64,000 nt of DNA, taken from contig OZ025782.1 of the NCBI GenBank assembly GCA_964019425.1, positions 186,001 through 250,000 on the forward strand, written 5' to 3'. A model generated the notes under the pieces. It made no database searches. It saw only the letters and a program-made list of their open reading frames with translations, and was not told the DNA's origin. Positions 1 through 59,357 of this stretch are shown here, in pieces (within the stretch, counting starts at the first letter, position 1; each line of letters begins with the position of its first letter). The translations under genes and the position numbers were made by a program. The stretch is from Flectonema sp. DT1601. Taxonomy: Eukaryota.

Positions 1-3000
1 TCACCACCAACATCACCCAACCTCTTCATACCAAGCACACCTGATGCTAGTAATATATCAAGGAAGTTTAATGACCAGTAATCAACCTTAATCTTTATCT
101 CATCATCAGTGCATTTATTTAATGTTGATATGGTCTTTGGTGTACTAGAGTATCCTCCACTTGGAATCTGAGATACTTTTATTTTAAACTCTCCGACTGG
201 ATTCTCAATAGGTGTTGTCATCTCTTGTGATTTGCTTATTGGTTTTTCTATAAAAGTTTTAACGCCCAGTGAAGTGATGTAATACCATGTACTGTGTTGG
301 TATTTCTCATTTATAATATTTTGAATCAGCTTCGACAAATCCACTACTATTTCACAATGAATAAATATAACGTCATCAATGAAACGGTTGAGATGGTCAG
401 ATGGAGAAAAGTCATTCTTCACATCAATCAAAACATACAGTTTACTACTAGCTGTCCAGTATTTATGAATATCTGATATGGTTGAAGAGCTAATTTTTAT
501 ACAATTAGACGGAGCAAACTCAATGAGTGAGTCTGTTGATGAAAATACAAAATTCTTTCTATCAGAAATCATCTGTTCATCCCTTGACAGTTCCTCAACA
601 GTACTCAATTGCTGTTTATTTATTTGATACTTTCTCGCTTGGTTGTCAGTTGTTGGGGCGCATTCAAATCCCCTCATTGTAATTACCTCATGTGATCGTC
701 CTTCCTTTTTGATTGAAAAGTCAACCTTCGTCGTACCATTAAACGCAAAAGGAGTTTTTTTAGCAAGAGTTATATACCTATTAACTGAATTGTTATTATC
801 AATTAAATATTCAGGTGTGTGAACAACCATTTCTTGGATACCAATAGGGATACCACTGCACTGCAAAACTGATGATAATTGCGTGCAGCAGTCAAGAGCA
901 GCAGCTGAAATAGGACCATTGCTATCAACATAGTCAACTATACTAGCTAAGAGTTCTGTGTTTGAGTTAACAATAACGTGATCAACTGCTTTAAATTCAC
1001 TAGTGTAGTGAAAGCCTTCGTTAGCAAGCAGTCTGTAGAGCTCTTCGTGTGACATCTTTGAAATTAGATTTGAAGCAGTGAAATTACTTTCAATCTGTTT
1101 CAAAGCTCCTAAGCGATCATCGTTAACACTCTTCTTGACATTTGAAGAAGTATACAGCTCAGCAGTGCAGTGTAATTTCTTGTTGTTTTTAACAGATGAA
1201 TGAATGCTAATGGTCGGTGGTGTTATCGATGTATCGATCTCACAGATTAATGATATCTGAGCATCGTTTTCTTTGTTATTCATCATCATCTCATAAGAAG
1301 GAATGTCTAATGCTTTTATAAAATTAATATTCCTCAAAGTAATGATGTCTGGAACTCTACCTCGATTCTTAAAATCAGAAATGACATCACAAAGCATGAC
1401 GTGTAACCAAAATGTTGCCGGTACGATCATTGATCCGTTGAATGTGTGCGATCGAAGATATGTCAATCCGCAGTGTTGCCAAGCATATGGATCATCTGTT
1501 CCGGGTAATTTCATTAAGTCTGAATGTTGTGGAGATAGGATGGAACTTGGCAGTGACAAAGCTCTTCCATACTTAACCCAGTCAATTATCTTTGTAACAC
1601 AAATAGTTGAATATTTACCAATAATGTTTGGAAGTAATTTCATAACAAAGTCAAGATCTTGAGTTCGATTTAAGAACATTTCTCCTTCCTCAGGTTTGAT
1701 GTTAAATCGTTCAGACATTCCAACTTCCCAACCTCCCCATTGAATTGAAATTACCAAAGCTGATGTTTTAGTAGTGTTTACGTGTTGCTTAGAATACGTG
1801 TCAATATAGCCGTTAGCTGCCGCATAGACACCCTGACCTGCCGGAGCGAATATCGAACTTGACGAACTACATAAGAATAAGTTAACTTGTTCATCACTTC
1901 CAAACACTGAAAGTAGATTTTGAACACCGTGAATCTTAGCAGCAACCTGTGATGTGAGTTTGTTGTTGTCTTGAGGGATGTTTTTAATAATTTGATCTGA
2001 CACAACACCCGCACAGTGGTACACTGAGACCTTTGAATTACAGCTGCTAACAGTTGAGTATAGTTTTATAATGTCTTCTTTACGAGACACGTCTCCAGTC
2101 AAGAATTCAATACCGTCTTGTTCCGACTGCCCAGATATCTTTTTACAAATCTCCTGCTTCGATTCCTGAGATAGAATCGTACGTCCCATTAAATATATTT
2201 TCGAAGCCATTCTATTCGTAAAAAACCACTTTGCGATTTCCAATCCCAATCCCATGGTACCACCTGTTATAGCGACTACTTGAGAACTGTCTACAGGCAG
2301 TGATTGATTTAATTGAGGGACTGCAGTTAGAGTTGGAGTATACCACTTGTTGTTAGCAGCGTCAAACATATATTCATCTGATGAATGGTTTAACAGTTTT
2401 AATTTATTTATAATTGTTGACAGTATATTAGGTTGATTGTTTTGTATTAGAATCCGAGACATTCTAACGCTATTAAATTCCTTTTGGACGACTCTTGAAA
2501 AAGCAACCAACGGAGCGTAGTGAGGATCACTAGCTGGAACTACAACAAATACCGTGACAGGTATGTCTTGTGCTGTGGACATCGCTCCTATCTTCTGCAC
2601 GAGTGTGATGAAAGTCCCCAGCAATGACGTTGTCTCAGCTGCTGTTGTCATTTCCGTTGAATGCAGACTTCCACTTATTACTAATGTTCGATATTTTTTA
2701 ACGAAATCCAACACATTAGTATCATCACAGCAAACAGCCCCGAGAGGGAAGTCTCTGTCGGCTGTTTGTTTTATGTAGTAAAGAGGTGTAATACACTGAT
2801 ACTGTTGAATGTTAGTATTAACAATGTCCGTGAGCATGTTGTTTATTTTATATTCGTACTCAACAACATCTGGTTGCTGATATAGATTCGTTTCCTGAGA
2901 TAGCACATGGTTGTTATCAATCTTTTTGGTTGGTGTTTCTGGCCAACAGAGTTGCCTGTCCCATGATGGAGGAGGTAGGTCAGTTATATGAAAGTTACCG

Positions 3001-6000
3001 GATTGATATTTATATTGCAAAACTTTTTCATAATCAAATACACATCCTGATGCCCACAACTGACCAATAGATGACCAAAACTCCGTTGATTCAAACTTTG
3101 AAGAATTCTCAGACGGTCTTGGAAGTACTGATGTTGTTGTTGACTTACAACTCTCACTGATACATCCTTTTAGAAGGGATGGTCCACATTCAATCACAGT
3201 GGCATTTTCAGGAATTAATCCTGCGGCTTTACTAAATAAGACTTTCTGAGTTAAATGATTAACCCAGTACTCAACAGAACACATTTTATCCACTGACAAT
3301 ACTGTACCAGTAACAGAAGATAATAACTCACACGAATGCACTGGTACACTGAATTCATTTTCTGAGAAGAATTCACGTAAGCTGTTAACTCCCTCAAGCA
3401 TTGCGGATGTGTGAAATGCGGTTTTTACGGCTAGCCTCTTACTGGTCCAAGGTTTATTATTTTTAGTAAAAGTCTCAGTGAGTGAGTCCAGAGCTGATGA
3501 GGGTCCTGCGATAACACTCCTGAGAGGTGAATTGATGCATGCGATTTCAACTTTTTGATCATTCCCGGAGTTGTATTCCGACACCAGAACCTCAACTTCG
3601 CTGATATCACTCCCAGCGACCGACAGCATTCCTAATGAAGTTCCCTCTGCGATTGAATCACTTATCTGTCCTCTCTTCTCAACAAATCGAAGAGCTGTTT
3701 GAAGACTAAAGACACCAACGATAGTAGCACAAACAATCTCACCTAACGAATGTCCTATTAAATGCGTTGGGTTGATATTAATTGATTCTTTTAGTAAGAT
3801 TGCTAAACAATACTCAACAGAAAATATAAGAAGTTGCTCATCTCTGTTGGTATCCGGAGTATGAGAGATTGACCTCCCCAATGCAGCTTCACAAGACTTA
3901 AATAACTCATCAAAAGCTGGAATTTCCCTTCTCAATTGAATACCCAAATTCCTGTAACAACCACCTTGTCCAGGAAAGCATAACACTAGTGTTTTTGAAG
4001 AAGTTTTTTCAGTGAAAAAAAATGAATTTTTAGAAGTGACCACAGCTCTAAAAGGATATGTTGGTCTTGTTGATAAAGTGTACTCTAAGTCAGCAAACCG
4101 AACATCCGTATCTAGTTTGTCGGAAAAGTAAAGAGATCTATACTGTTCACAACTTGCTTTCAACGCCTCTTTAGAATGAGAAGATAATAAAATAGTCGCC
4201 TTGTCTGACATATCGATTTCTGATCTGTCGTCAGAAGTAATACTCTCAGGTATGTATTCAGAACATATTAAGTGAACATTTGTACCACCGACACCAAAGC
4301 TTGATACTCCACAAGATCGTATTGATGTAGAAGGTACCTCCCAGTGTTCTGATTGTTTCTTAATTGAGATATTCTGCAACTCTGCTACAGGAGAACTGAA
4401 ATTAGCTGTCGGTAAAAGAGTTTTGTGATAAAGAGAAAGTGTTGCTTTGAGAAGACCAATACCACCCGCTGCAGTGTTCACATGTCCAACGTGACCTTTC
4501 ACGGAAGACAATGAGATGTTATTTGTTGGATATGAATCTTGAATAGCTGCAAGCTCAATAGGATCTCCGACTGCTGTACCAGTACCGTGTCCTTCAATCA
4601 TGGAAACGTTTCTTACTGTTTCGGTGTCAGTGTCTCTTTGTGCTTTTTTTATTGCTGTGACCTGACCAAGTCTTGATGGGGAATTGTAGCTGTGTTTTTG
4701 TCTTCCATCATTCGATATTCCGATACCCTTTATAACTGAGTATATACGATCACCATCTTCAATTGATTTATTTTTTGGTTTTAAGATAAACGCGACAGCG
4801 GCATTACCAGGGACAGTACCCGATCCTGTCTTATCGTATGGGTGACATTGACCTGTTACTGACCATACCATTCCTGGTTGATAATTATAACCTGCATCTT
4901 GTGGTACTTGAATAGAAGCAGCTGTTACAAGAGCTACATCACATTGATTATCTCTTAATGATGACACTGCCGTATGAATTGCAGTTAGAGCACTACTGCA
5001 AGCAGTTTGAATTGTTTGTGAAGGCCCACGTAGATCTAATAAATAAGAAATTCTCGTGGCGGTGTAATCTTTGTCATTTCCAACTTCTAATTCCCAATAC
5101 AGTGCTGGGTTATCAAATCTCATATTCAAAGTATCACCTCCCTTGTCTGTCATTATGTCTGTGAGATACTGTGGAAGACTTGCTCCTGCTGAGAATACTC
5201 CAACATTTCTGGTTGGATTCTGTCTAGTGTACGTCTGTGATTTCGAGTTACGCATACTTTTTGATGGTAGTCTATAAGCATATCCGGCATCAACTAACGC
5301 TTCGTATCCAACTTCACATACAATTCGTTGATTCGGATCCGTTAGTAGTATTTCTTCTTTTGATACTCCCCAAGCATTGCAATCAAAATGTGTTATGAAC
5401 TCTGCTGCCAGAAGAATACCTCTTTTCGGTTTCTTCTTAATAGGAACTGTTAAATCAGTACCTTTTTTAAGAGAATCGAAGACTGTTTTAATATTATTAC
5501 CTGAGAGTGTATTATCAGGCCATCTAACTGCAAGACCGATAATTGCAATATCTCTATCCAGTTTTGTGTTTAGAGGAAGGTCGTCTTGTTGAGATTGTTC
5601 TTTGTTAACAGATTTTGACGCTAGGAGTTCTCTCTGTGATCTGATTGTTAAATTATCCATGATGTCAGCAACACGAACTCCTATTGCTGCCGCGAGTTTT
5701 GTTATTATTAGAGAATGCCCTCCAATGTCGAATATTGTAACGTCATCACCGCAGTCAATAGCAGCTTCTCCAAGTAATTCTATCCATGCTGATAGAACGG
5801 CGTCTGCTTGATGAGGAATTTGATTTCTGTGATCGAATGGAGCAGCAATTCCTTCAATGATTGACCGTAACTGTCTAGTGTCTAACTTACCAGTTGGTGT
5901 TACTGGGAATGATGACATAATAAAGTAAGCTGAGGGAATATGCCACTCTGGCGATGTCTGTTTTAGAAACAAACTCAGCTCTCTAGCTACAGCTGGTTGT

Positions 6001-7391
6001 ACAGCTGTCGGTTCAGCAACTTCATCAAAAACTCTAAAACACCCAATTAATGAATCACTATCAGAACTAACTAACACAGCAGCATCAACAACCTGAGAAT
6101 GATTAATTATATTACTGGGTATCTGTCTAAGACTATTTTGTATTGATGCAATGTTTATTTTAAATCCTCTGACCTTAGCAGTTTGATTGAGTCTGCCTTT
6201 CAAAACGAATACGTTTTTAGGTCCAGATTCGGTTTCAATTCTTAACATCTCAACATGATCTGAAGTAAACCATGTTCTCCTTCCATTGTGATCACGAAAT
6301 GAGTTGTCAACCGAGCCTAAATAACAAGCATTGTTAGGTACACCAGATCCGGAAACTAGCAGTTCATCGTTTAGGATATTCATAGTAACTCTTGGTGTAA
6401 TAGGGTTGCCTACTGGACTGAATTTCATTCCAGTCGATATCAGTTTTTCAGTTATGAAAGGAGTAAGACAAAAAGCTGCAACATCACCAGCTTCTGTCGT
6501 CGATAACAAATTAACTATCAGCGTGTTGGGTAGAATCTCGTGAAGCATCTGAACTGTGTCCAACGGAAGACCTTCACCAGACATTACTAACATTTTCATA
6601 GTGTCTTTTATTGATGATAAATATTTATTTTGTGAAACAGCCCTAAGCAGTGATGGTGTAAAACAATCAATTCTTGTAGCCTTGTGTTCAGCGAGATACT
6701 CAACAAGCATCGTAGAATCAATAACGACATCATCGGGGATGATTAGAGTTCGTTGACCACAACAGAGAGCCATCCACCAATACCATAAAGGGAACATATT
6801 GACTGCTATTATGTCATTGTCATCCATTGGGAATTCTGTTTCTCTCCATCGTAGCATGTTAGATAGCTGCTCATGAACCATTATAACACCTTTTGGTTTG
6901 CCCGTTGACGTGCCTGTGGTCCAGTCGACAAACACCGCTGTGTTTGAATTTGGAACATATCTCTTGTCCATTGTTGAATTTGATTTAATCTTCATTAGCT
7001 CCACGACTGAGTGTCTTTCTATGTGGCAGTCGTCTGGGATGTTTTCTTCTTTAAAATGATCGTCGTGTAATAATAATTTTGGTTTCCATGTTTCACAAAT
7101 ATGTTTTCTTTGTATTAACGTACTTCGCTTATCAATCATTGTGAACGGTACTCCCGCAAATGAACATGCGAGACATGCAAGAATCCATTCAATACCTTTT
7201 TCACAACATATCGCAACATGAGTTCCTGAATCAGGTAACACTGATGATATTCGAACAGCAAGCCTAACTAATTCTTCATACGTTAATGTGATGTTTTTAT
7301 ATATTACTGCAGTTGATTTTGGGACTCGCTCTGCTGATTGTCTTATCAATGTCGGGAATGGTACCAACTCAGTGTACCCATCTTCTACCAT
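1..7391 (-). CDS. Hybrid NRPS-type I PKS, 3'-partial (A-T-KS-AT-KR-DH-ER..., >2460 aa, continues past window start)
   Basis: ATG at 7391 (MVEDGYTELVPF); the frame reaches base 1 with no stop seen, which explains its absence from the ORF track. A domain: LTYEEL, DWTTGTSTGKPKGV, GRLNQTAKVRGFKI, PVTPTGKLD. T domain: DIGGHSL (Ser ~5713). KS: NDKDY...QTACSS (Cys ~4999), HGTGT, KGHVGH. AT: FPGQG, GHSLG (~3748), TAFH. KR: ITGGTMGLG, HCAGV, YAAAN, IQWGGW. DH: HTFNGSMIVPA (His ~1447), LDCCTQ. ER start: SLNFLDILLASG. Confidence 0.93.
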   Translation of the reverse strand, partial: MVEDGYTELVPFPTLIRQSAERVPKSTAVIYKNITLTYEELVRLAVRISSVLPDSGTHVAICCEKGIEWILACLACSFAGVPFTMIDKRSTLIQRKHICETWKPKLLLHDDHFKEENIPDDCHIERHSVVELMKIKSNSTMDKRYVPNSNTAVFVDWTTGTSTGKPKGVIMVHEQLSNMLRWRETEFPMDDNDIIAVNMFPLWYWWMALCCGQRTLIIPDDVVIDSTMLVEYLAEHKATRIDCFTPSLLRAVSQNKYLSSIKDTMKMLVMSGEGLPLDTVQMLHEILPNTLIVNLLSTTEAGDVAAFCLTPFITEKLISTGMKFSPVGNPITPRVTMNILNDELLVSGSGVPNNACYLGSVDNSFRDHNGRRTWFTSDHVEMLRIETESGPKNVFVLKGRLNQTAKVRGFKINIASIQNSLRQIPSNIINHSQVVDAAVLVSSDSDSLIGCFRVFDEVAEPTAVQPAVARELSLFLKQTSPEWHIPSAYFIMSSFPVTPTGKLDTRQLRSIIEGIAAPFDHRNQIPHQADAVLSAWIELLGEAAIDCGDDVTIFDIGGHSLIITKLAAAIGVRVADIMDNLTIRSQRELLASKSVNKEQSQQDDLPLNTKLDRDIAIIGLAVRWPDNTLSGNNIKTVFDSLKKGTDLTVPIKKKPKRGILLAAEFITHFDCNAWGVSKEEILLTDPNQRIVCEVGYEALVDAGYAYRLPSKSMRNSKSQTYTRQNPTRNVGVFSAGASLPQYLTDIMTDKGGDTLNMRFDNPALYWELEVGNDKDYTATRISYLLDLRGPSQTIQTACSSALTAIHTAVSSLRDNQCDVALVTAASIQVPQDAGYNYQPGMVWSVTGQCHPYDKTGSGTVPGNAAVAFILKPKNKSIEDGDRIYSVIKGIGISNDGRQKHSYNSPSRLGQVTAIKKAQRDTDTETVRNVSMIEGHGTGTAVGDPIELAAIQDSYPTNNISLSSVKGHVGHVNTAAGGIGLLKATLSLYHKTLLPTANFSSPVAELQNISIKKQSEHWEVPSTSIRSCGVSSFGVGGTNVHLICSEYIPESITSDDRSEIDMSDKATILLSSHSKEALKASCEQYRSLYFSDKLDTDVRFADLEYTLSTRPTYPFRAVVTSKNSFFFTEKTSSKTLVLCFPGQGGCYRNLGIQLRREIPAFDELFKSCEAALGRSISHTPDTNRDEQLLIFSVEYCLAILLKESININPTHLIGHSLGEIVCATIVGVFSLQTALRFVEKRGQISDSIAEGTSLGMLSVAGSDISEVEVLVSEYNSGNDQKVEIACINSPLRSVIAGPSSALDSLTETFTKNNKPWTSKRLAVKTAFHTSAMLEGVNSLREFFSENEFSVPVHSCELLSSVTGTVLSVDKMCSVEYWVNHLTQKVLFSKAAGLIPENATVIECGPSLLKGCISESCKSTTTSVLPRPSENSSKFESTEFWSSIGQLWASGCVFDYEKVLQYKYQSGNFHITDLPPPSWDRQLCWPETPTKKIDNNHVLSQETNLYQQPDVVEYEYKINNMLTDIVNTNIQQYQCITPLYYIKQTADRDFPLGAVCCDDTNVLDFVKKYRTLVISGSLHSTEMTTAAETTSLLGTFITLVQKIGAMSTAQDIPVTVFVVVPASDPHYAPLVAFSRVVQKEFNSVRMSRILIQNNQPNILSTIINKLKLLNHSSDEYMFDAANNKWYTPTLTAVPQLNQSLPVDSSQVVAITGGTMGLGLEIAKWFFTNRMASKIYLMGRTILSQESKQEICKKISGQSEQDGIEFLTGDVSRKEDIIKLYSTVSSCNSKVSVYHCAGVVSDQIIKNIPQDNNKLTSQVAAKIHGVQNLLSVFGSDEQVNLFLCSSSSSIFAPAGQGVYAAANGYIDTYSKQHVNTTKTSALVISIQWGGWEVGMSERFNIKPEEGEMFLNRTQDLDFVMKLLPNIIGKYSTICVTKIIDWVKYGRALSLPSSILSPQHSDLMKLPGTDDPYAWQHCGLTYLRSHTFNGSMIVPATFWLHVMLCDVISDFKNRGRVPDIITLRNINFIKALDIPSYEMMMNNKENDAQISLICEIDTSITPPTISIHSSVKNNKKLHCTAELYTSSNVKKSVNDDRLGALKQIESNFTASNLISKMSHEELYRLLANEGFHYTSEFKAVDHVIVNSNTELLASIVDYVDSNGPISAAALDCCTQLSSVLQCSGIPIGIQEMVVHTPEYLIDNNNSVNRYITLAKKTPFAFNGTTKVDFSIKKEGRSHEVITMRGFECAPTTDNQARKYQINKQQLSTVEELSRDEQMISDRKNFVFSSTDSLIEFAPSNCIKISSSTISDIHKYWTASSKLYVLIDVKNDFSPSDHLNRFIDDVIFIHCEIVVDLSKLIQNIINEKYQHSTWYYITSLGVKTFIEKPISKSQEMTTPIENPVGEFKIKVSQIPSGGYSSTPKTISTLNKCTDDEIKIKVDYWSLNFLDILLASGVLGMKRLGDVGG

Positions 7392-7801
7392 ACCTTACGA
7401 TAGCTGTATAGAGAAGAGATAAAGTATGATCTTAGTATTGATCGAACATCATGATTACTTTCGTATTTAATTTTAAAAAAAAAATTGTGACGAAACATCA
7501 CATTAAGACAGCGGTTATGATTTGAAGCTTAGCGAAGAGAAGATTCAGATAAATGCCTGTTGTTCTTTTTTAACAAAGAAAACAAAATACATTATTAGGA
7601 TCTTTAGTTTTACATTACGACAACTACAAGAAAAAAGGCCGATTAAACTAACAAAAAAAAAAAAAAAAAAAAAAAAACCGAAACAGAAAAAAACACAAAA
7701 AATAATTTTAAAAGAGCGGCACTGCAAACAGAAGGAAGGTAACTCCTTCAAATTCGGAGCTGCATAATTTCTAAAGGGTGAATATCTAAAAATCGATCAC
7801 G

Positions 7802-8284
7802 CTATGACCCAACACACATCAGAACACAAGATCCCATACATGATTTAAAAGCATCTCTTCCATAAGGAACGTACGATAATGTGTACCAAGCTTGTGATAT
7901 AAAGAAAGCAGTGCAGGTTACAGTTATTAGAAATGAGGAACTACTTCCAACCAATCCAATATATAAAGTAACAATAAGAGATGTGAGGAATGTTAGGCTC
8001 GCACAGCGACGATCTTTTGCTGATATCGCATTAAAAGTTTTCTCCCAAGAGATTGCACATGATCCGCCTATTGTAAACAGAGATGACAAAGCAGACATGA
8101 CTGCGAAACTACCAACTCGTCCCTCTCTTGCACTGAGCCATCCAAGAATGGTACATAACAATGACATTCCTAAGCACATTAGACCGACATAAACCTTTTC
8201 ACTCCAATCGCTAAGTATATACCAACGATCAGAATAATTGTCTTCATCATCATCTCCAACCCAGAGTCTGCTTCCCTCATCCAT
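7802..8284 (-). CDS. SFT2/Got1-family vesicle transport membrane protein
   Basis: 160 aa with about 4 hydrophobic segments; C-terminal QAWYTLSYVPYGRDAFKSC matches the SFT2 WYxLSYIPxxR signature. Confidence 0.8.
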   Translation of the reverse strand: MDEGSRLWVGDDDEDNYSDRWYILSDWSEKVYVGLMCLGMSLLCTILGWLSAREGRVGSFAVMSALSSLFTIGGSCAISWEKTFNAISAKDRRCASLTFLTSLIVTLYIGLVGSSSSFLITVTCTAFFISQAWYTLSYVPYGRDAFKSCMGSCVLMCVGS

Positions 8285-14670: not shown

Positions 14671-17600
14671 CTATCTCACTGCTCCATCGATTTCCGATTC
14701 AGTTTCAGTTCGGCTATTGCTAGCTGACGGTCTCTCTCTGTCAGAACAAGATGACGATGATTTTTGTAATTCCCTTTCTATTCTCTCTGTTAAAGAACCT
14801 CCTTGAGGAGATGTTAGAGATGGGACTTGAGAGTTACCTGAATTCGGAGAATGTGTTGGGGTTTGTTTAACAGTACTATCCAACTCTGTGGCTGTTTCAT
14901 TATCTCTCTCATCATCGACTTTGATGGGAGCAGGTGACCAAGGCGACTGTGGTTTCTGCATTGAACCAGAACCAACTGTTGATCTCTTTGATGACACTTC
15001 TCTATCTGTAACATACGTACTCGTGAGACTGACATCACTTCCTGAAGTAGAGCAACGTCTGTGAATGCTGTTTTTAACAACAGATTCTTCATCTGAAAGA
15101 CCTGACATAAAATCTAAACTAATCAAATCGATAAATTCTCTCAAACTGTAGATAATATCATCCTGATCTTCACACGAAGTCACATCCACTCCGATAGCTT
15201 CAGCAGCAATAATCAGTTGAATCAGTCCAACGTGTGTAAAGAAAGATGCTCCGTCCATGTAACTTGTTATTTTATTAGCTAGTTCATCGCATAATTCACC
15301 TTTTATTTGGTAGTGGCTTGGATTTGGTAGTATCGAACTTGCAATCGCAGCAACATCAACTAGCGGAAGTGAATTAAAGTATTTACCCCACGTTGTTCTG
15401 GTTAATTCTCGATCTTCATCTCGAGATAACCAGAATTCTTTTATTAATCGAAGTGATCTCATGAGCATGGCGCAACCAAATATGGTTCCGAAGACGATCA
15501 GTGGCCCCCACATACTTTCTATTGACATTCCGTTTGTTAGTTCTTCATCCTCAACGACTTGTGTTACTCCACAATCAGGTGAAATCGCATGGACGTGTTT
15601 TGTTCTTAAGTTATCAATAATTCTGTGTTTTTTTTTTTTTTTTTTAAAAGTATTATTTAAATATTATATAAATAAAAAACAGAACAGTAGAATTATTAAA
15701 ACACACACACCTATCATTCAACAAGGTCATCGTTCCGTACGAGATAGCATCAACAAAACGACTTTCATAAGGAAGAGCAAAAGCTTTAAATAATTGTAAT
15801 TCACTGATGTCTGGACCTCTCAATTCAATTTCACAATCGGTTTGAAAAGGGAAGTAGAGCGTTGATGCTAAAGCAGCATCGATATTTTTTGCTTTGAGTT
15901 GAGATATGGCATCTGAATCGTTCGCGTAAGTCGTATAACCGGTCATTCGTAGACTAGGACCTGTCAAGATCGATTCCGTCGCAGACCCTTTAGGGACTCC
16001 TAATTTTGACATTCCTATCTTTCCAGTTTGAAAATCCTCAAAAGAATCAACTGGATACACTGAACTCCTCCTAGTTAAAAACGTCGTCAGCTCTGCAGTA
16101 TAAGAAGCTGTAAACACAATTGCAAAAAAAAACAAACCCGCCACCAACAATCTCCCAGAATGGGTTACCGGAGCGTTCTCATTAACCATAAAGAAAGATG
16201 TGAATGATAAGTATGAGACTGCTAAGAATCCTTCAAATCCACGGGGGATTAACTCATTTCGACCTGCTTCAAGACACCACAAACCAATTCCAGACATGAT
16301 AATTACAAATAAGGCTGCTAAGTATACTTCAGTTTGCATTGGAGTTAGAAATCTCCAGAGATCTACTCTGTCTGATGTTGGACGTTTTATCATTAGTCGT
16401 TTTGTATCAGTGGTCCAGGGTTGGGAAAATTTCAACAATCGTTGCCTGTCTGGAGTAATCGTTAAAGCAACCGCGAATATATCAAACTCACCATCGCCAA
16501 CTTGTTGTAATGTGTATCCATCTACGCAGTTCTTGTGATCACATTGATAACAAGAAATAAATGGACTATACGTAAATCCATAATTAGAACTAAGCGTGTC
16601 AACAATATCCCATAAAATACCCTTACCAACGCCAGATGATGTTCCGTAAGAAAGTCCATCATCTCGACAAGGAAAGATTATTTTTAAATGTTGGTTTCGT
16701 AGAACATCAGTCGGAGTTGGTCTCGAACCTCCAGGCCATTGAATACGTTCTGAGTCAACCCAAAGATCACTGCTAAAATTATAACCGCCGATGACGTTCC
16801 ATTGTGATGCTCCTCCGAACTGCTGTAAGTTCAATAAATCATAGTGTGATCCGACAAGAAACTCACTATCTAGTAACCTATCTAGTTCAGGAATGATATT
16901 CGCCAAACTGTAATCCCATTTCTTGGTAAAGACATCATGACATAAATTATTTTGATACGGATTCGTATGTCCTTGCGACGCATCCAGAGATTTCAACAAC
17001 AACGTCATCGACGAGAATGCCGCAATATAACTCGGGTTATCCTTATACGTTTGATACTCTGGCGTTGATATTAAATCAGGAGGAGTATACACTCTTGGAT
17101 AGAGTGAGAATATACCTTGAATATCATTATTTGAGGCCTTAAGAGTGGTGAACGATGATGGATTATCAAGCGGTAATCCTTCTGACGCAAACCAAACAGC
17201 TCCACGCCCGATGAGAGGAGGCTTAATACTTGAAGCAGCTGTCAATACCTGAACAGCTAACGCACCTGTTCCTAAAATGATATAAACTTGTGCCATGGAG
17301 CGCTTTGATGCATCTTCTAGTGTAGCAGTAACATTCAGCTGAAGAGGTATCGTTGTCACTTCCAAACCAGCTTTATAACCCTGTGAAATCATAGCTTCAA
17401 CAAGAGACAAACCGTTGTCTTGTTGCTCGTAGAAAGCCGTTGCCTTGTTCCATCCGAGTTTTACAATGAATTTTGATATTGCCTCAGCTTGATTCAAGTC
17501 TGTCAAAACAGTCCTTCTCAACGTTGAGTACAATAATGAGGTTGCAATGTCAGAAGCGCTTGCACCTGTCATCATGGGTATACCGTGAATGCTTGCTAAC

Positions 17601-17887
17601 CATCCGGCTAATTTTACTTCTTGCATACTATCAGGACCTATGATCCCAACGACATCTCCTTGAACTATTTCAGAACAAATTGCCTCAGCTGTACTAACTG
17701 TCGCTGAAGGTTTTCGTATTACGGGAGTCCAGGTAGAACTCTTTCCGAATTCTCTAACTGCAACATCTACGGCTGCGGATTTGTCTCCGTTCCAAAAACT
17801 TATAATCTTTTGTCCCGTAACATTATTAACAAAGCATATCAATAGTAGATACAACAGTAATGGGAAGGTAAAGTACTGGCGTCGCAT
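14671..17887 (-). CDS. Ionotropic glutamate receptor-like channel; exons 17887-15711 and 15622-14671 (1042 aa)
   Basis: Signal peptide, ANF/ATD domain (VVGIIGP), S1 (LTITPDRQRLLKFSQPW), M1-M3 with SYTAELTTFLT, S2. Intron 15710-15623 (GT...AACACAG) joins in frame to ORF 14671..15528, which supplies M4 (MWGPLIVFGTIFG) and a Ser-rich tail. Confidence 0.88.
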
Positions 17888-44905: not shown

Positions 44906-45911
44906 CTTTTTTTTTTTTTTTTTCTTCCACTCTTCTTTCCCTTTAGATAATAAGGCAATAAAAACAACAAAAACAAAAGCAAAGTATCAAATAACATTCA
45001 CTCGCTCTGTCTATGAAAATCGTATCCTGATGAGAGAATGGAGGGTCAAATGAATTAAAATACATCGACATCACAGTGCTAACCAAGTATGATGCTAAAC
45101 CGTTTGAGGTATAAACAAATATAAAAAAACAACAACAAAAAACAAAACAAAAAAAAACAATCTTAGGCAAGGGGATACATACAGCAATTAACTGTATTTT
45201 CATTTTTTAAAAAATTATTTTTTGTGTGCTTTTTTTAATTTGCTTGTTTTTCAAGCTTTTTTAGATCAATCCGAAGGCCATGTGAGAAAATTGGGGGACA
45301 GGGTGACCATCGACGTGTTCTCTAACTATTTTCCATGGTCAATAGTTAGTTCAACGAGTTGCTCCTCTGTTGATAAAAAAAAGAGAGGAATAGTCGCTAA
45401 GCAGCAGCTGTACGGAGTTCCATAAGTAACACCGTCAGCCTAGAAACAACAAAGAATATGTTCCCTACAATGTTGCCTAACGAGCTACTAAATAAAATGA
45501 AATAAAGTGAACTAGAATATGGCCTGACACATCTCTTCGTCATAGTGCTGACGAAGATGAATCAAAATCAGTCCACAAGTTTCATCGCTCACAAGTTTTG
45601 CGCGGGTCAATATCGTCTTTTTTTTTTTTGATTTTTTTGATTTTTTTTTTTTTTTTTCCAATTTTCCTTTTCAGAAAACACCAACACGGCAAAATGCACT
45701 AAGTAACAACCAAACCATGCCTTCTCTTCACACGATAGGTCATGATCAGAGAAAAGGAATAGTTTGTGTCGTAGTTTATTGGCGTAACGATACTAATTGT
45801 TTTTTTTTTTCTTTTTCTAAACTTAAACAGACGAAGTGACCTCTTGAATGAAAATAAAAATTTAAGAAATGAAAGATTTCACTTCTAAATAGTGGAGCAG
45901 AGTGAAGTTAT

Positions 45912-46370
45912 TTATGCCTCATCTGGAGCACCAGTCTTCTGACGAGCCTGTTCAGCAGCTCCAAGGAACTTGACTCTGATGGCACCGTTTCCGTAACAAA
46001 TGAGAAGGATCCAGTTGATAACCTGACACATGATGATACCTGCTGCTGCTGCACGTGCTGAGTCTCTAATCTCAGAATCGATGTTGTCATTGTCAGCCAA
46101 CTGAAGCCAGAACTCAGTCTGAGTCATCAAGTAAGCTCCAGCCATGGCACAGAATCCAACAATTACTTGAGACCATTCCTCAGCCTTGTCAGTGAACACT
46201 GCTACAATCACGCAGACCAACAAGAAGAATTCAAACCAACATCCCCACCACAGAGGTCTCATTGCTTCATTGGACAGGTTTGCCTTGTCATGGTAAGCTG
46301 CGGTACCCGCCAACAACAGAAGCCAGGCGATCAAAGTGAGGACTAGAAGAACGATGGTAACAACACGCAT
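45912..46370 (-). CDS. 4-TM membrane protein, LCI1/Sho1-TM-like (copy 1, 152 aa)
   Basis: ATG at 46370; near-identical to 47238..47696; motifs LTLIAW..AG..KAN, WWGCWFE, AAAAGIIMCQVIN. Confidence 0.8.
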   Translation of the reverse strand: MRVVTIVLLVLTLIAWLLLLAGTAAYHDKANLSNEAMRPLWWGCWFEFFLLVCVIVAVFTDKAEEWSQVIVGFCAMAGAYLMTQTEFWLQLADNDNIDSEIRDSARAAAAGIIMCQVINWILLICYGNGAIRVKFLGAAEQARQKTGAPDEA

Positions 46371-47237
46371 TTTTTGTTTTTTAAAAGTGTTTTTTTGGAT
46401 AACTAAATAGCTGTGAGGAAAGTTACAATAAGTAAAAAGCTCGGTGACCAACAAATAATCCACGAGAATATCCTTCGAGAGGAGGCCGGCTGGTGTGTGC
46501 CTTGGCAGGCTGGTACCAAATTGATGCGCAAAAATGACACGGCCAACAAGGATCTTAAAAAACAACAACATACACGCTATTTTTGAAATTGTATCCTGTA
46601 AGAGAATGGGTTGGTTAATCGGTTTGTATATTTTTTAATACAACCAGGCAAATAGACCAATCTGAAGGCAATGCGAGTAAATTTGGAGACGACAGAGACA
46701 ATTGACGTGTTCTCTATCTATTGACCATGGTCATTAGTTGGTTCAACGACTTGCTCCTTCTGTTGATCGAGAAAAGAGAGGAATTGCTGATAGAAACAAC
46801 AAAATAATTTGTTTCTAACAATGTTGCTTAACGAGCGATTAAGTTGGAATAAAACAAAACGAAAAGAGAGAAGAAGTACATGTGACGGAGACGACAGACC
46901 CCTTTCACAAGTTCTACATGCTTTACATTAGGGTCAGCTTCGCGTATCTTTTAATTTTCTTTTTTCTTTGAACTTTCTTGTACAGAAAATGCCCCCCCGG
47001 ATGGGTGACTAACTACATTTTGAGATTTTTCAAACAAGATTCCTTCTCTTTACACTTTAATTCATGATCAGAGAAAAGGAATAGTTTGTGTCGTAGTTTA
47101 TTAGCGTAACGATACTAATTGTTTTTTTCTTCTTTTTCTAAACTTAAACAGACGAAGTGACCCCAGTCATTGAATGGAAATAAAAATTTAAGAAATGAAA
47201 AATTTCACTTCTAAATAGTGGAGCAGAGTGAAGTTAT

Positions 47238-47696
47238 TTATGCCTCATCTGGAGCACCAGTCTTCTGACGAGCCTGTTCAGCAGCTCCAAGGAACTTGAC
47301 TCTGATGGCACCGTTTCCGTAACAAATGAGAAGGATCCAGTTGATAACCTGACACATGATGATACCTGCTGCTGCTGCACGTGCTGAGTCTCTAATCTCA
47401 GAATCGATGTTGTCATTGTCAGCTAACTGAAGCCAGAACTCAGTCTGAGTCATCAAGTAAGCTCCAGCCATGGCACAGAATCCAACAATTACTTGAGACC
47501 ACTCCTCAGCCTTGTCAGTGAACACTGCTACAATCACGCAGACCAACAAGAAGAATTCAAACCAACATCCCCACCACAGAGGTCTCATTGCTTCATTGGA
47601 CAGGTTTGCCTTGTCATGGTAAGCTGCGGTACCCGCCAACAACAGAAGCCAGGCGATCAAAGTGAGGACTAGAAGAACGATGGAAACAACACGCAT
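47238..47696 (-). CDS. 4-TM membrane protein, LCI1/Sho1-TM-like (copy 2, 152 aa)
   Basis: Tandem duplicate; I see 3 nt differences (one T/S change, two silent) and a shared ~170-nt downstream flank. Confidence 0.8.
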   Translation of the reverse strand: MRVVSIVLLVLTLIAWLLLLAGTAAYHDKANLSNEAMRPLWWGCWFEFFLLVCVIVAVFTDKAEEWSQVIVGFCAMAGAYLMTQTEFWLQLADNDNIDSEIRDSARAAAAGIIMCQVINWILLICYGNGAIRVKFLGAAEQARQKTGAPDEA

Positions 47697-54582: not shown

Positions 54583-55278
54583 TTAAACAGAATTCAACGT
54601 ATCTAATGAATCAGGTTGCTGTTTAATTATCAATTCTTCGATCTGTTCTTTTTCATCTTCGCAATTGATGTCTTCGAGTTCGTGTGTTTCTCTGAACTTC
54701 AGAGTTGGTATTCTAATTCCGTATGATCGACAACCATTCCAACCCTGACATGTTAGTATAAGAGATAACGCAATTACTGATATTGTGTATTTAGTTGTTT
54801 TCTCAAAAGGATTTAACTGCTCTGGAAACCATATTCTTGTCGTAAAGTAGAACGGCATTAGACACAAACCAACAACAAGTAAACCTTTCCAAAATATTAG
54901 CGGAAATGATCGAACTGATTTCATACGTGCATTTGCGATGTTCAATTTTATGTCAGTTTTTGGAAGATCAGCTACTTCTCTATGATTAAAATATATCTGA
55001 AAACCCACTACTGGAATAACAGCAACAACAGACATACCAAACGCAAATGTCACTGAACAACCCAACCGTATGAGCAGTGCAGTAACCAGTCCCACAACAA
55101 TTTCAGCAGACACTCCGCTGATAAGAAGACTTCTTCGATGAGCTTCAAACACTTCCTTCTTTCTCTTTTCACACGTAATTATTCTTCCAGAACCGAATCT
55201 TCCATTTGGATAGTAGATTGTGCTTCCGTCTTCCTGATCAGCGAAGACAGTTTCTACCATTCTGTCCAAGAATTCCAT
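54583..55278 (-). CDS. 4-TM membrane protein, paralog A
   Basis: MEFLDRMVETVFADQEDGSTIYYPNGRFGSGRII...; paralogous to 58662..59357; start chosen by alignment of the two copies. Confidence 0.7.
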   Translation of the reverse strand: MEFLDRMVETVFADQEDGSTIYYPNGRFGSGRIITCEKRKKEVFEAHRRSLLISGVSAEIVVGLVTALLIRLGCSVTFAFGMSVVAVIPVVGFQIYFNHREVADLPKTDIKLNIANARMKSVRSFPLIFWKGLLVVGLCLMPFYFTTRIWFPEQLNPFEKTTKYTISVIALSLILTCQGWNGCRSYGIRIPTLKFRETHELEDINCEDEKEQIEELIIKQQPDSLDTLNSV

Positions 55279-58661: not shown

Positions 58662-59357
58662 TTAAACAGAATTCAACGTATCTAATGAATCAGGTTGCTG
58701 TTTAATTATCAATTCTTCGATCTGTTCTTTTTCATCTTCGCAATTGATGTCTTCAAGTTCGTGTGTTTCTCTGAACTTCAGAGTTGGTTCTTCTATTTTG
58801 TATGATCGACAACCATTCCAACCTTGGTGTATTAATGTGATGGAGAATACGATTATTGATATTGCGAATGTTGTTGTTTTTTGAACTCCACGCAGTTGAT
58901 CCGGAAACCAAACTCTAATTGCAAAGTACAACAGTATCACATACAAACCAACAACAAGTAAACCTTTCCAAAATATTAGTGGAAAAGATCGTACTGACCT
59001 CGCTCGTGCATTTGCGACATTCAATTTTATATTTGTTTTTGGAAGATCAGCTACCTCTCTTCGATTAAAATATATTTGAAAATAAAATATCGGAATACAA
59101 GCAATAAATGCCATCCCATGCGCAAATTCCACAGAGCAACCCAACAGCATCAGCAGTAAGGGACTAACTCCTGTAACTACTCCAATACACACTCCGCTGA
59201 TAACAAGATTTCTGCGATGAGCTATAAATACTTCCTTCTTTCTCTTTTCACACGTAATTATTCTTCCAGAACCGAATGTTCTATTTGGATAGTGGATTGT
59301 GCTTCCGTCTTCCTGATCAGCGAAGAAACTTTCTGTGAATCTGTCCAAGAATCTCAT
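58662..59357 (-). CDS. 4-TM membrane protein, paralog B
   Basis: MRFLDRFTESFFADQEDGSTIHYPNRTFGSGRII...; last ~40 aa identical to paralog A. Confidence 0.7.
   Translation of the reverse strand: MRFLDRFTESFFADQEDGSTIHYPNRTFGSGRIITCEKRKKEVFIAHRRNLVISGVCIGVVTGVSPLLLMLLGCSVEFAHGMAFIACIPIFYFQIYFNRREVADLPKTNIKLNVANARARSVRSFPLIFWKGLLVVGLYVILLYFAIRVWFPDQLRGVQKTTTFAISIIVFSITLIHQGWNGCRSYKIEEPTLKFRETHELEDINCEDEKEQIEELIIKQQPDSLDTLNSV

Follow-up and report, generated by a model that had tools for sequence, protein, structure and literature searches.

A diplonemid member of the ZmaK-like single-module synthases with an adenylation pocket matching the published signature of zwitterion-loading domains

The window, a stretch of 64,000 nucleotides from Flectonema sp. 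DT1601, carries at its start, on the minus strand, the 5′ part of a megasynthase gene, P0001. Translation from position 7391 to position 3 gave 2,463 codons with no stop, in agreement with the single uninterrupted frame described by the first-pass annotation, and this frame corresponds to residues 1–2,463 of a protein of 3,189 residues encoded on a 204,784-base contig. Extension to the C-terminus, as that annotation had proposed, added 726 residues containing the rest of the ER, a linker, a second T domain (Ser2927) and an FSH1 serine hydrolase (Ser3098, His3171), with Pfam matches to ER, T and FSH1. The gene had been called hidden, and placed at the edge of a housekeeping array; it was missing as an ORF because the window cuts it, and both descriptions reflect only the window edge. 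The P0001 gene is intact and encodes a 3,189-residue assembly-line enzyme. The features, in window coordinates, are the following.

7404..7424, minus strand: pyrimidine tract plus AG, 13 bases before the ATG, a putative spliced-leader acceptor
1..7391, minus strand: 5′ 77% of the megasynthase gene P0001, single-exon-looking, running off the window (reading frame and protein match)
5862..7343, minus strand: adenylation (A) domain with an NRPS-type scaffold and a shortened Asp235 loop (profile, structure match, alignment)
within 5862..7343, minus strand: adenylation pocket residues Phe200, Trp203, Tyr204, Trp205, Val269 and Asp303
5616..5828, minus strand: first carrier (T) domain, Ser560
4257..5555, minus strand: ketosynthase (KS), Cys798/His935/His970 intact, hybrid-type clade (Pfam, alignment, tree)
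3012..3980, minus strand: acyltransferase (AT), Ser1215 and His1327, malonyl-type motif
2340..2723, minus strand: KR structural subdomain (profile comparison, predicted fold)
1710..2282, minus strand: KR catalytic subdomain, Tyr1856/Asn1860, Asp1799 in the B-type position
627..1517, minus strand: dehydratase (DH), double hotdog, His1982/Asp2167 (profile comparison, predicted fold)
111..626, minus strand: variable DH-ER linker with no significant match and a low-confidence fold
3..110, minus strand: start of the enoylreductase (ER), the remainder lying past the window

Among the 17 ORFs scanned upstream of P0001, nine gave a Pfam match (Got1/Sft2, a glutamate-receptor-like channel, an Na/H exchanger, a kinase, a PPR protein, a prenyltransferase subunit, a proteasome ATPase, a trichohyalin-domain protein and a weak DUF); none of the nine was biosynthetic, and no tailoring genes were found in this set. 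An assembly chimera or bacterial contamination is practically untenable as an explanation of P0001, as its GC3 (0.30) falls inside that of 13 neighbouring ORFs (0.29–0.43), its neighbours are eukaryotic, and the identical domain order is present in transcript assemblies of five diplonemids and in the Diplonema papillatum annotation, while no point in favour of a chimera was found. Because the five diplonemid sequences stem from independent transcript assemblies, they by themselves refute a chimera, and they also indicate that orthologues of P0001 are transcribed.

Elsewhere in the window we observed an ionotropic glutamate-receptor-like channel gene (ANF_receptor, Lig_chan; 15653–17887) and, between 51543 and 63948, near-identical segmental repeats (97–100%) lying 7.3–8.1 kb apart. 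Two paralogous 231-residue membrane-like ORFs with no Pfam match are found at 54583–55278 and 58662–59357. At 45844–47469, a repeat of 300 bases or more, 99% identical between copies 1,326 bases apart, overlaps a small membrane-protein ORF and is likely a tandem gene pair.

Pfam and family profiles gave the order A-T-KS-AT-KR-DH-ER-T-FSH1 hydrolase for P0001. The Pfam matches covered residues 17–343 (A), 530–570 (T), 613–998 (KS), 1138–1417 (AT), 1706–1889 (KR, E 4e-28) and 2112–2250 (DH, E 3.6e-4, which taken alone misses the Pfam cut-off). Domain mapping placed no carrier domain between AT, KR, DH and ER, and Pfam scans of P0001 and its relatives gave no condensation domain. The arrangement with KR ahead of DH had been proposed from the sequence, with 2290–1700 read as KR, 1480–700 as DH and the start of an ER after them, and all three assignments were borne out by profiles and, for KR and DH, by fold. 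In profile–profile comparisons, the segment before the Rossmann part, previously described as structural-like, matched the KR structural subdomain (E 2e-8 to 6e-12), and the family DH profile matched canonical DH domains (E 1e-19); the DH also passed the Pfam cut-off in six of 11 relatives scanned. An AlphaFold model of the KR-DH region (12-sequence alignment, mean pLDDT 69.5) had the KR didomain complete and, after it, a double hotdog; Foldseek returned modular-PKS KR and DH structures for this model, and the structural alignment of the whole KR reached Z 35.4 with an rmsd of 3.0 Å over 362 residues, from a comparison list that barely tested the DH. Taken together, the profile comparison and the predicted fold indicate that the weak DH of P0001 is a real domain.

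The catalytic residues of T, KS, AT, KR, DH, the second T and the hydrolase were conserved in 7/7 aligned full-length proteins, the other five family proteins being covered for the A domain alone, and the domain order was kept in all 12 family proteins. The DH-ER linker varied from 87 to 276 residues across the family, and both this linker and the ER-T linker folded at a pLDDT of about 50 or lower; profile comparisons for the idea that the two linkers are decayed halves of an ancestral second KR gave no significant match (best E 0.18–0.3). The order departs from that of a canonical fully reducing cis-AT module (KS-AT-DH-KRs-ER-KRc-ACP), so that its description as non-canonical stands in this respect, but it had already been published for dinoflagellate 'ZmaK-like' hybrids and is also found in ClbB.

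The same order was found in Diplonema japonicum, D. papillatum (annotated PKTS1, KAJ9458496.1), Lacrimia lanifica, Sulcionema specki and Flectonema neradi, the last providing the closest relative (60% identical), from which a diplonemid origin of the window is most likely, as well as in four further proteins; the D. ambulator member is a C-terminal fragment, that of Prymnesium parvum lacks the AT and carries extra C-terminal domains, and six of 33 metagenome loci belong to the family. In the A, KS, AT, KR, DH and ER trees the family formed one clade (support 0.93–1.0; SH-aLRT 99 for the KS), with no intruders among 60 outsiders (45 best-scoring and 15 random fetched domains). Since each of the six trees contained a single intruder-free clade, the architecture was inherited as a unit.

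Three further sequences are of note. The P. parvum protein (P0402, KAL1519792.1) is longer by about 1,150 residues, in which DSBA-like and methyltransferase domains were matched, and may be a merged gene model. The metagenome locus L081 (positions 19–7952) encodes a member that occupies two frames, with the break between DH and ER, and, like P0402, has lost the AT. A large PKS of Thalassiosira profunda (P0389) carries an FSH1 match, and its ER falls outside the family.

The same domain set has been described in dinoflagellates. The accessible text of PMC8283056 reports a 'ZmaK-like' transcript of Amphidinium carterae (comp26075) with two T domains, A, AT, KS, KR, DH, ER and FSH1, and calls substrate predictions for such enzymes unreliable; that of PMC7159223 tabulates A-PP-KS-KR-DH-ER-PP-TE for Gambierdiscus and reports it from Karenia and Ostreopsis as well, and both place these hybrids in core dinoflagellates with a bacterial origin. 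Carrier sites of the A. carterae protein are tabulated in the accessible part of PMC9027781: compared by eye, its second carrier-site 12-mer is letter-identical in the loci L081 and L084, both of which lie inside the family clade with P0001 in the six domain trees, and its first carrier site matches P0001 at 8/12 positions. The link between P0001 and the ZmaK-like enzymes is indirect and draws on this 12-residue site, the architecture and these two loci. These sequence features indicate that P0001 is a diplonemid-type member of the known protist 'ZmaK-like' single-module synthases, whose domain order is itself already in print. In the open literature searched we found neither a ZmaK-like gene in diplonemids nor a substrate for ZmaK-like enzymes, and the accessible text of PMC5725682, PMC9500876, PMC13004891, PMC4661987, PMC6722697, PMC13683363 and PMC11050029 gives no substrate and no mention of a diplonemid gene; the diplonemid range and the substrate lead are the points absent from the open literature searched.

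The A domain of P0001 is of the NRPS type, its nearest solved structures being NRPS A domains and not acyl-CoA ligases. To describe its pocket, we used an alignment of 57 rows comprising 12 family members, three ATRR-type domains and 42 other A domains. Pro201 occupies the position of the Asp of amino-acid-activating domains, and this residue, Asp235, was absent from 12/12 family members. The loop that carries it has a five-residue deletion in 12/12 family members, 3/3 ATRR-type domains and 0/42 other A domains; because the 42 controls were not picked for aryl- or hydroxy-acid A domains, this deletion may not be specific to zwitterions. Phe200 and Trp203 were invariant in the family (12/12) and aligned to two ATRR cage residues, and Asp303 aligned to the ATRR Glu at the E304 position, with an acid in eight of 12 family members and four of the 42 others. 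In the accessible text of bioRxiv 559534 the ATRR cage is given as F201/W204/W270 plus E304, and in that of PMC7496086 the ATRR and BurA A domains share a shorter hydrophobic loop, the absence of the Asp and an acidic residue. In the alignment, the family pocket matches the published signature of zwitterion-loading domains.

Several observations count against a zwitterion reading. The acid at 303 was missing in four of 12 family members, which together make up the ZmaK-motif subclade. In place of the third cage Trp, 12/12 have Val, Met, Leu or Phe (Val269 in P0001), so that P0001 has two of the three cage aromatics and not the full cage. The family A profile scored ATRR-type domains (186–204 bits) below ordinary NRPS domains (206–224 bits), and a clade uniting the family with ATRR-type A domains received a weak support of 87, by which their union is neither shown nor rejected. 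The smaller side chain at 269 could leave more room in the pocket, enough for one of the longer zwitterions, such as DMSP, that ATRR excludes (bioRxiv 559534, accessible text).

These data bear on what the A domain loads. The first-pass annotation had proposed an amino-acid-primed NRPS-PKS line for a secondary metabolite, which we consider highly unlikely. The term hybrid holds for the NRPS-type A scaffold and for the KS, whose tree neighbours were mostly KS domains downstream of A-T units, as had been predicted, and ClbB, which has the same order, extends an aminoacyl unit (PMC5490422, accessible text); it does not hold for a condensation domain, which is absent, or for amino-acid binding, given the missing Asp. 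A secondary-metabolite assembly line is also doubtful given that the gene is retained across distant protists (six diplonemid species and others), sits among housekeeping genes and has no tailoring genes on the upstream side, the one scanned. P0001 looks more like a small-molecule metabolic enzyme. Alternatively, the A domain could load a neutral acid other than an amino acid, such as an aryl, hydroxy, keto or short fatty acid, giving a saturated extended acid or a lipid building block. Loss of the Asp alone predicts no more than a non-amino-acid substrate, as A domains for aryl, keto and hydroxy acids are likewise without it (bioRxiv 559534, accessible text); the aromatic pocket could stack an aryl ring, and the ATRR cage is incomplete. 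We regard this alternative as possible, if on the unlikely side, since ATRR-type domains have precisely the same five-residue deletion, aromatics at the two aligned positions and the aligned acid, and the nearest structures are not acyl-CoA ligases.

A profile of three family A domains was also run against two sets of 401 genomes, with the best three candidates per genome scored. In the 401 genomes of the actinobacterial phylum sample it gave at least five matches, of which three were proteins of about 1,040–1,100 residues; two of these were scanned and both were A-T-R. Three actinobacterial-sample A-T-R proteins (L125, L126 and L129, from G778, G676 and G767) have the ATRR pocket signature and are ATRR-like by this signature alone. 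In L126, an A-T-R protein, Phe194/Trp197/Trp264/Glu298 repeat nearly the spacing of F201/W204/W270/E304 given in the accessible text on ATRR, and an SDR gene follows, resembling a split ATRR. In L131 (5059–8915) an SDR gene overlaps the 3′ end of an A-T-R gene, again resembling a split ATRR. The accessible text of bioRxiv 559534 calls ATRR exclusive to eukaryotes.

We propose, at a probability of about one half, that P0001 is a ZmaK-like single-module synthase that lengthens a zwitterionic acid, for example a betaine-type osmolyte, by two carbons in one extension instead of producing a toxin. The A domain would adenylate an onium acid, either a betaine such as glycine betaine or beta-alanine betaine or a sulfonium acid such as DMSP, and load it onto the first T domain, while the AT, in which the malonyl-type motif noted earlier is present, would put malonyl on the second. 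The KS would condense the two once, KR, DH and ER would take the beta-keto group to a methylene, and FSH1 would hydrolyse the product off the enzyme. Placing KR first would be workable in that the KR didomain stays uninterrupted and DH and ER are appended to it, as in ClbB. Glycine betaine would give gamma-butyrobetaine via carnitinyl and crotonobetainyl intermediates, and DMSP would give 5-dimethylsulfoniopentanoate, its C5 homologue; the product would serve as an osmolyte or carnitine precursor.

The sequence alone does not distinguish one round of extension from several, and the single round is our inference. With a zwitterion starter, an iterative, FAS-like module would instead yield long-chain omega-betaine or omega-sulfonium fatty acids, which we judge quite unlikely. 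A complete KS-AT-KR-DH-ER cycle and a hydrolase in one module would suit such a product, as would the hydrolase type, FSH1-type hydrolases being known to release long reduced chains in fungal systems. In the KS sample analysed, however, the family KS groups with those of hybrid modules and not with fully reducing or iterative ones, and BurA, the closest functional model, extends once (PMC7496086, accessible text).

A single extension of a betaine by P0001 finds circumstantial support in the accessible text of PMC9321204, where incubations of North Pacific plankton gave intact glycine-betaine label in carnitine and gamma-butyrobetaine with no enzyme assigned; there, gamma-butyrobetaine is read as carnitine-derived, and reversed catabolic enzymes are offered as the route. 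Tentatively, the ZmaK-like enzymes may provide a way, shared across kingdoms by diplonemids, dinoflagellates and haptophytes, of making gamma-butyrobetaine and carnitine from glycine betaine, or the C5 homologue from DMSP, through thiotemplate extension and independently of lysine, and may be the missing enzyme behind this labelling in seawater. All three groups rank among the most abundant plankton, and, if this is true, PKS chemistry would be tied to the marine cycling of betaine, DMSP and carnitine. In dinoflagellates the ZmaK-like gene belongs to a few conserved multidomain synthases that have been discussed as toxin candidates; its occurrence in diplonemids, which are heterotrophic, speaks for a general metabolic role. 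Genetic tools exist for D. papillatum, which has the family gene, so that a knockout is possible, and the pocket signature points to a short panel of candidate substrates.

Among known systems, the glycine betaine reductase ATRR (A-T-R-R; bioRxiv 559534, accessible text) resembles P0001 in its short, Asp-less loop, two of the three cage aromatics and the acid at the E304 position, but it reduces its thioester to choline, whereas P0001 would extend it, and the third cage Trp is absent from P0001. As described in the accessible text of PMC7496086, the gonyol synthetase BurA (TE-A-T-KS-AT-TE-KR-T) loads DMSP and converts it to gonyol by one malonyl extension and KR; it shares with P0001 the C-less A-T loading, the zwitterion pocket signature, malonyl extension and a hybrid-type KS, and, unlike P0001, ends after KR with other thioesterases and lacks DH, ER and FSH1. 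The dinoflagellate ZmaK-like enzymes share the domain set, including FSH1, and the KR-DH-ER-T-TE order; they differ in host range, the P0001 family being found in diplonemids and a haptophyte, the ZmaK-motif subclade, to which L081 and L084 belong, is only 28–29% identical to P0001, and some members (P0402, L081) lack the AT that P0001 has.

Colibactin ClbB (C-A-T-KS-AT-KR-DH-ER-T) shares the KS-AT-KR-DH-ER-T order, which is written so in the accessible text of PMC5490422, where the module extends an aminoacyl unit by one malonyl unit with beta-carbon processing; mapping of the family profiles confirmed it in clbB of E. coli CFT073, annotated as frameshifted. Unlike P0001, ClbB has a C domain, loads alanine and has no FSH1. 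It was not the family's sister in the A, KS and DH trees and was one of several neighbours in the KR tree; in the ER tree it was the family's sister in FastTree (0.95), a placement that a mixture model neither confirmed nor rejected (p-AU 0.57). ClbB as direct donor of the architecture was neither supported nor excluded. Both convergence and a shared DH-ER cassette remain as explanations of the common order. Word-limited searches found KR-DH in 0/80 GTDB loci, no viral locus with the whole architecture and no plasmid record (0/327) covering 80% of the KR-DH-ER query, and an Atlas search returned generic A-T clusters only. Two of 493 proteins, the bacterial P0110 and P0352, have adjacent KR and DH matches about 150 and 380 residues apart, respectively. 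PUFA synthases and enediyne PKSs (KS-AT-ACP-KR-DH) also place KR before DH, but their carrier lies between AT and KR, whereas that of P0001 follows the ER. The P0001 family would represent a second lineage of KR-DH-ER modules, from which one may learn how reducing domains can be reordered.
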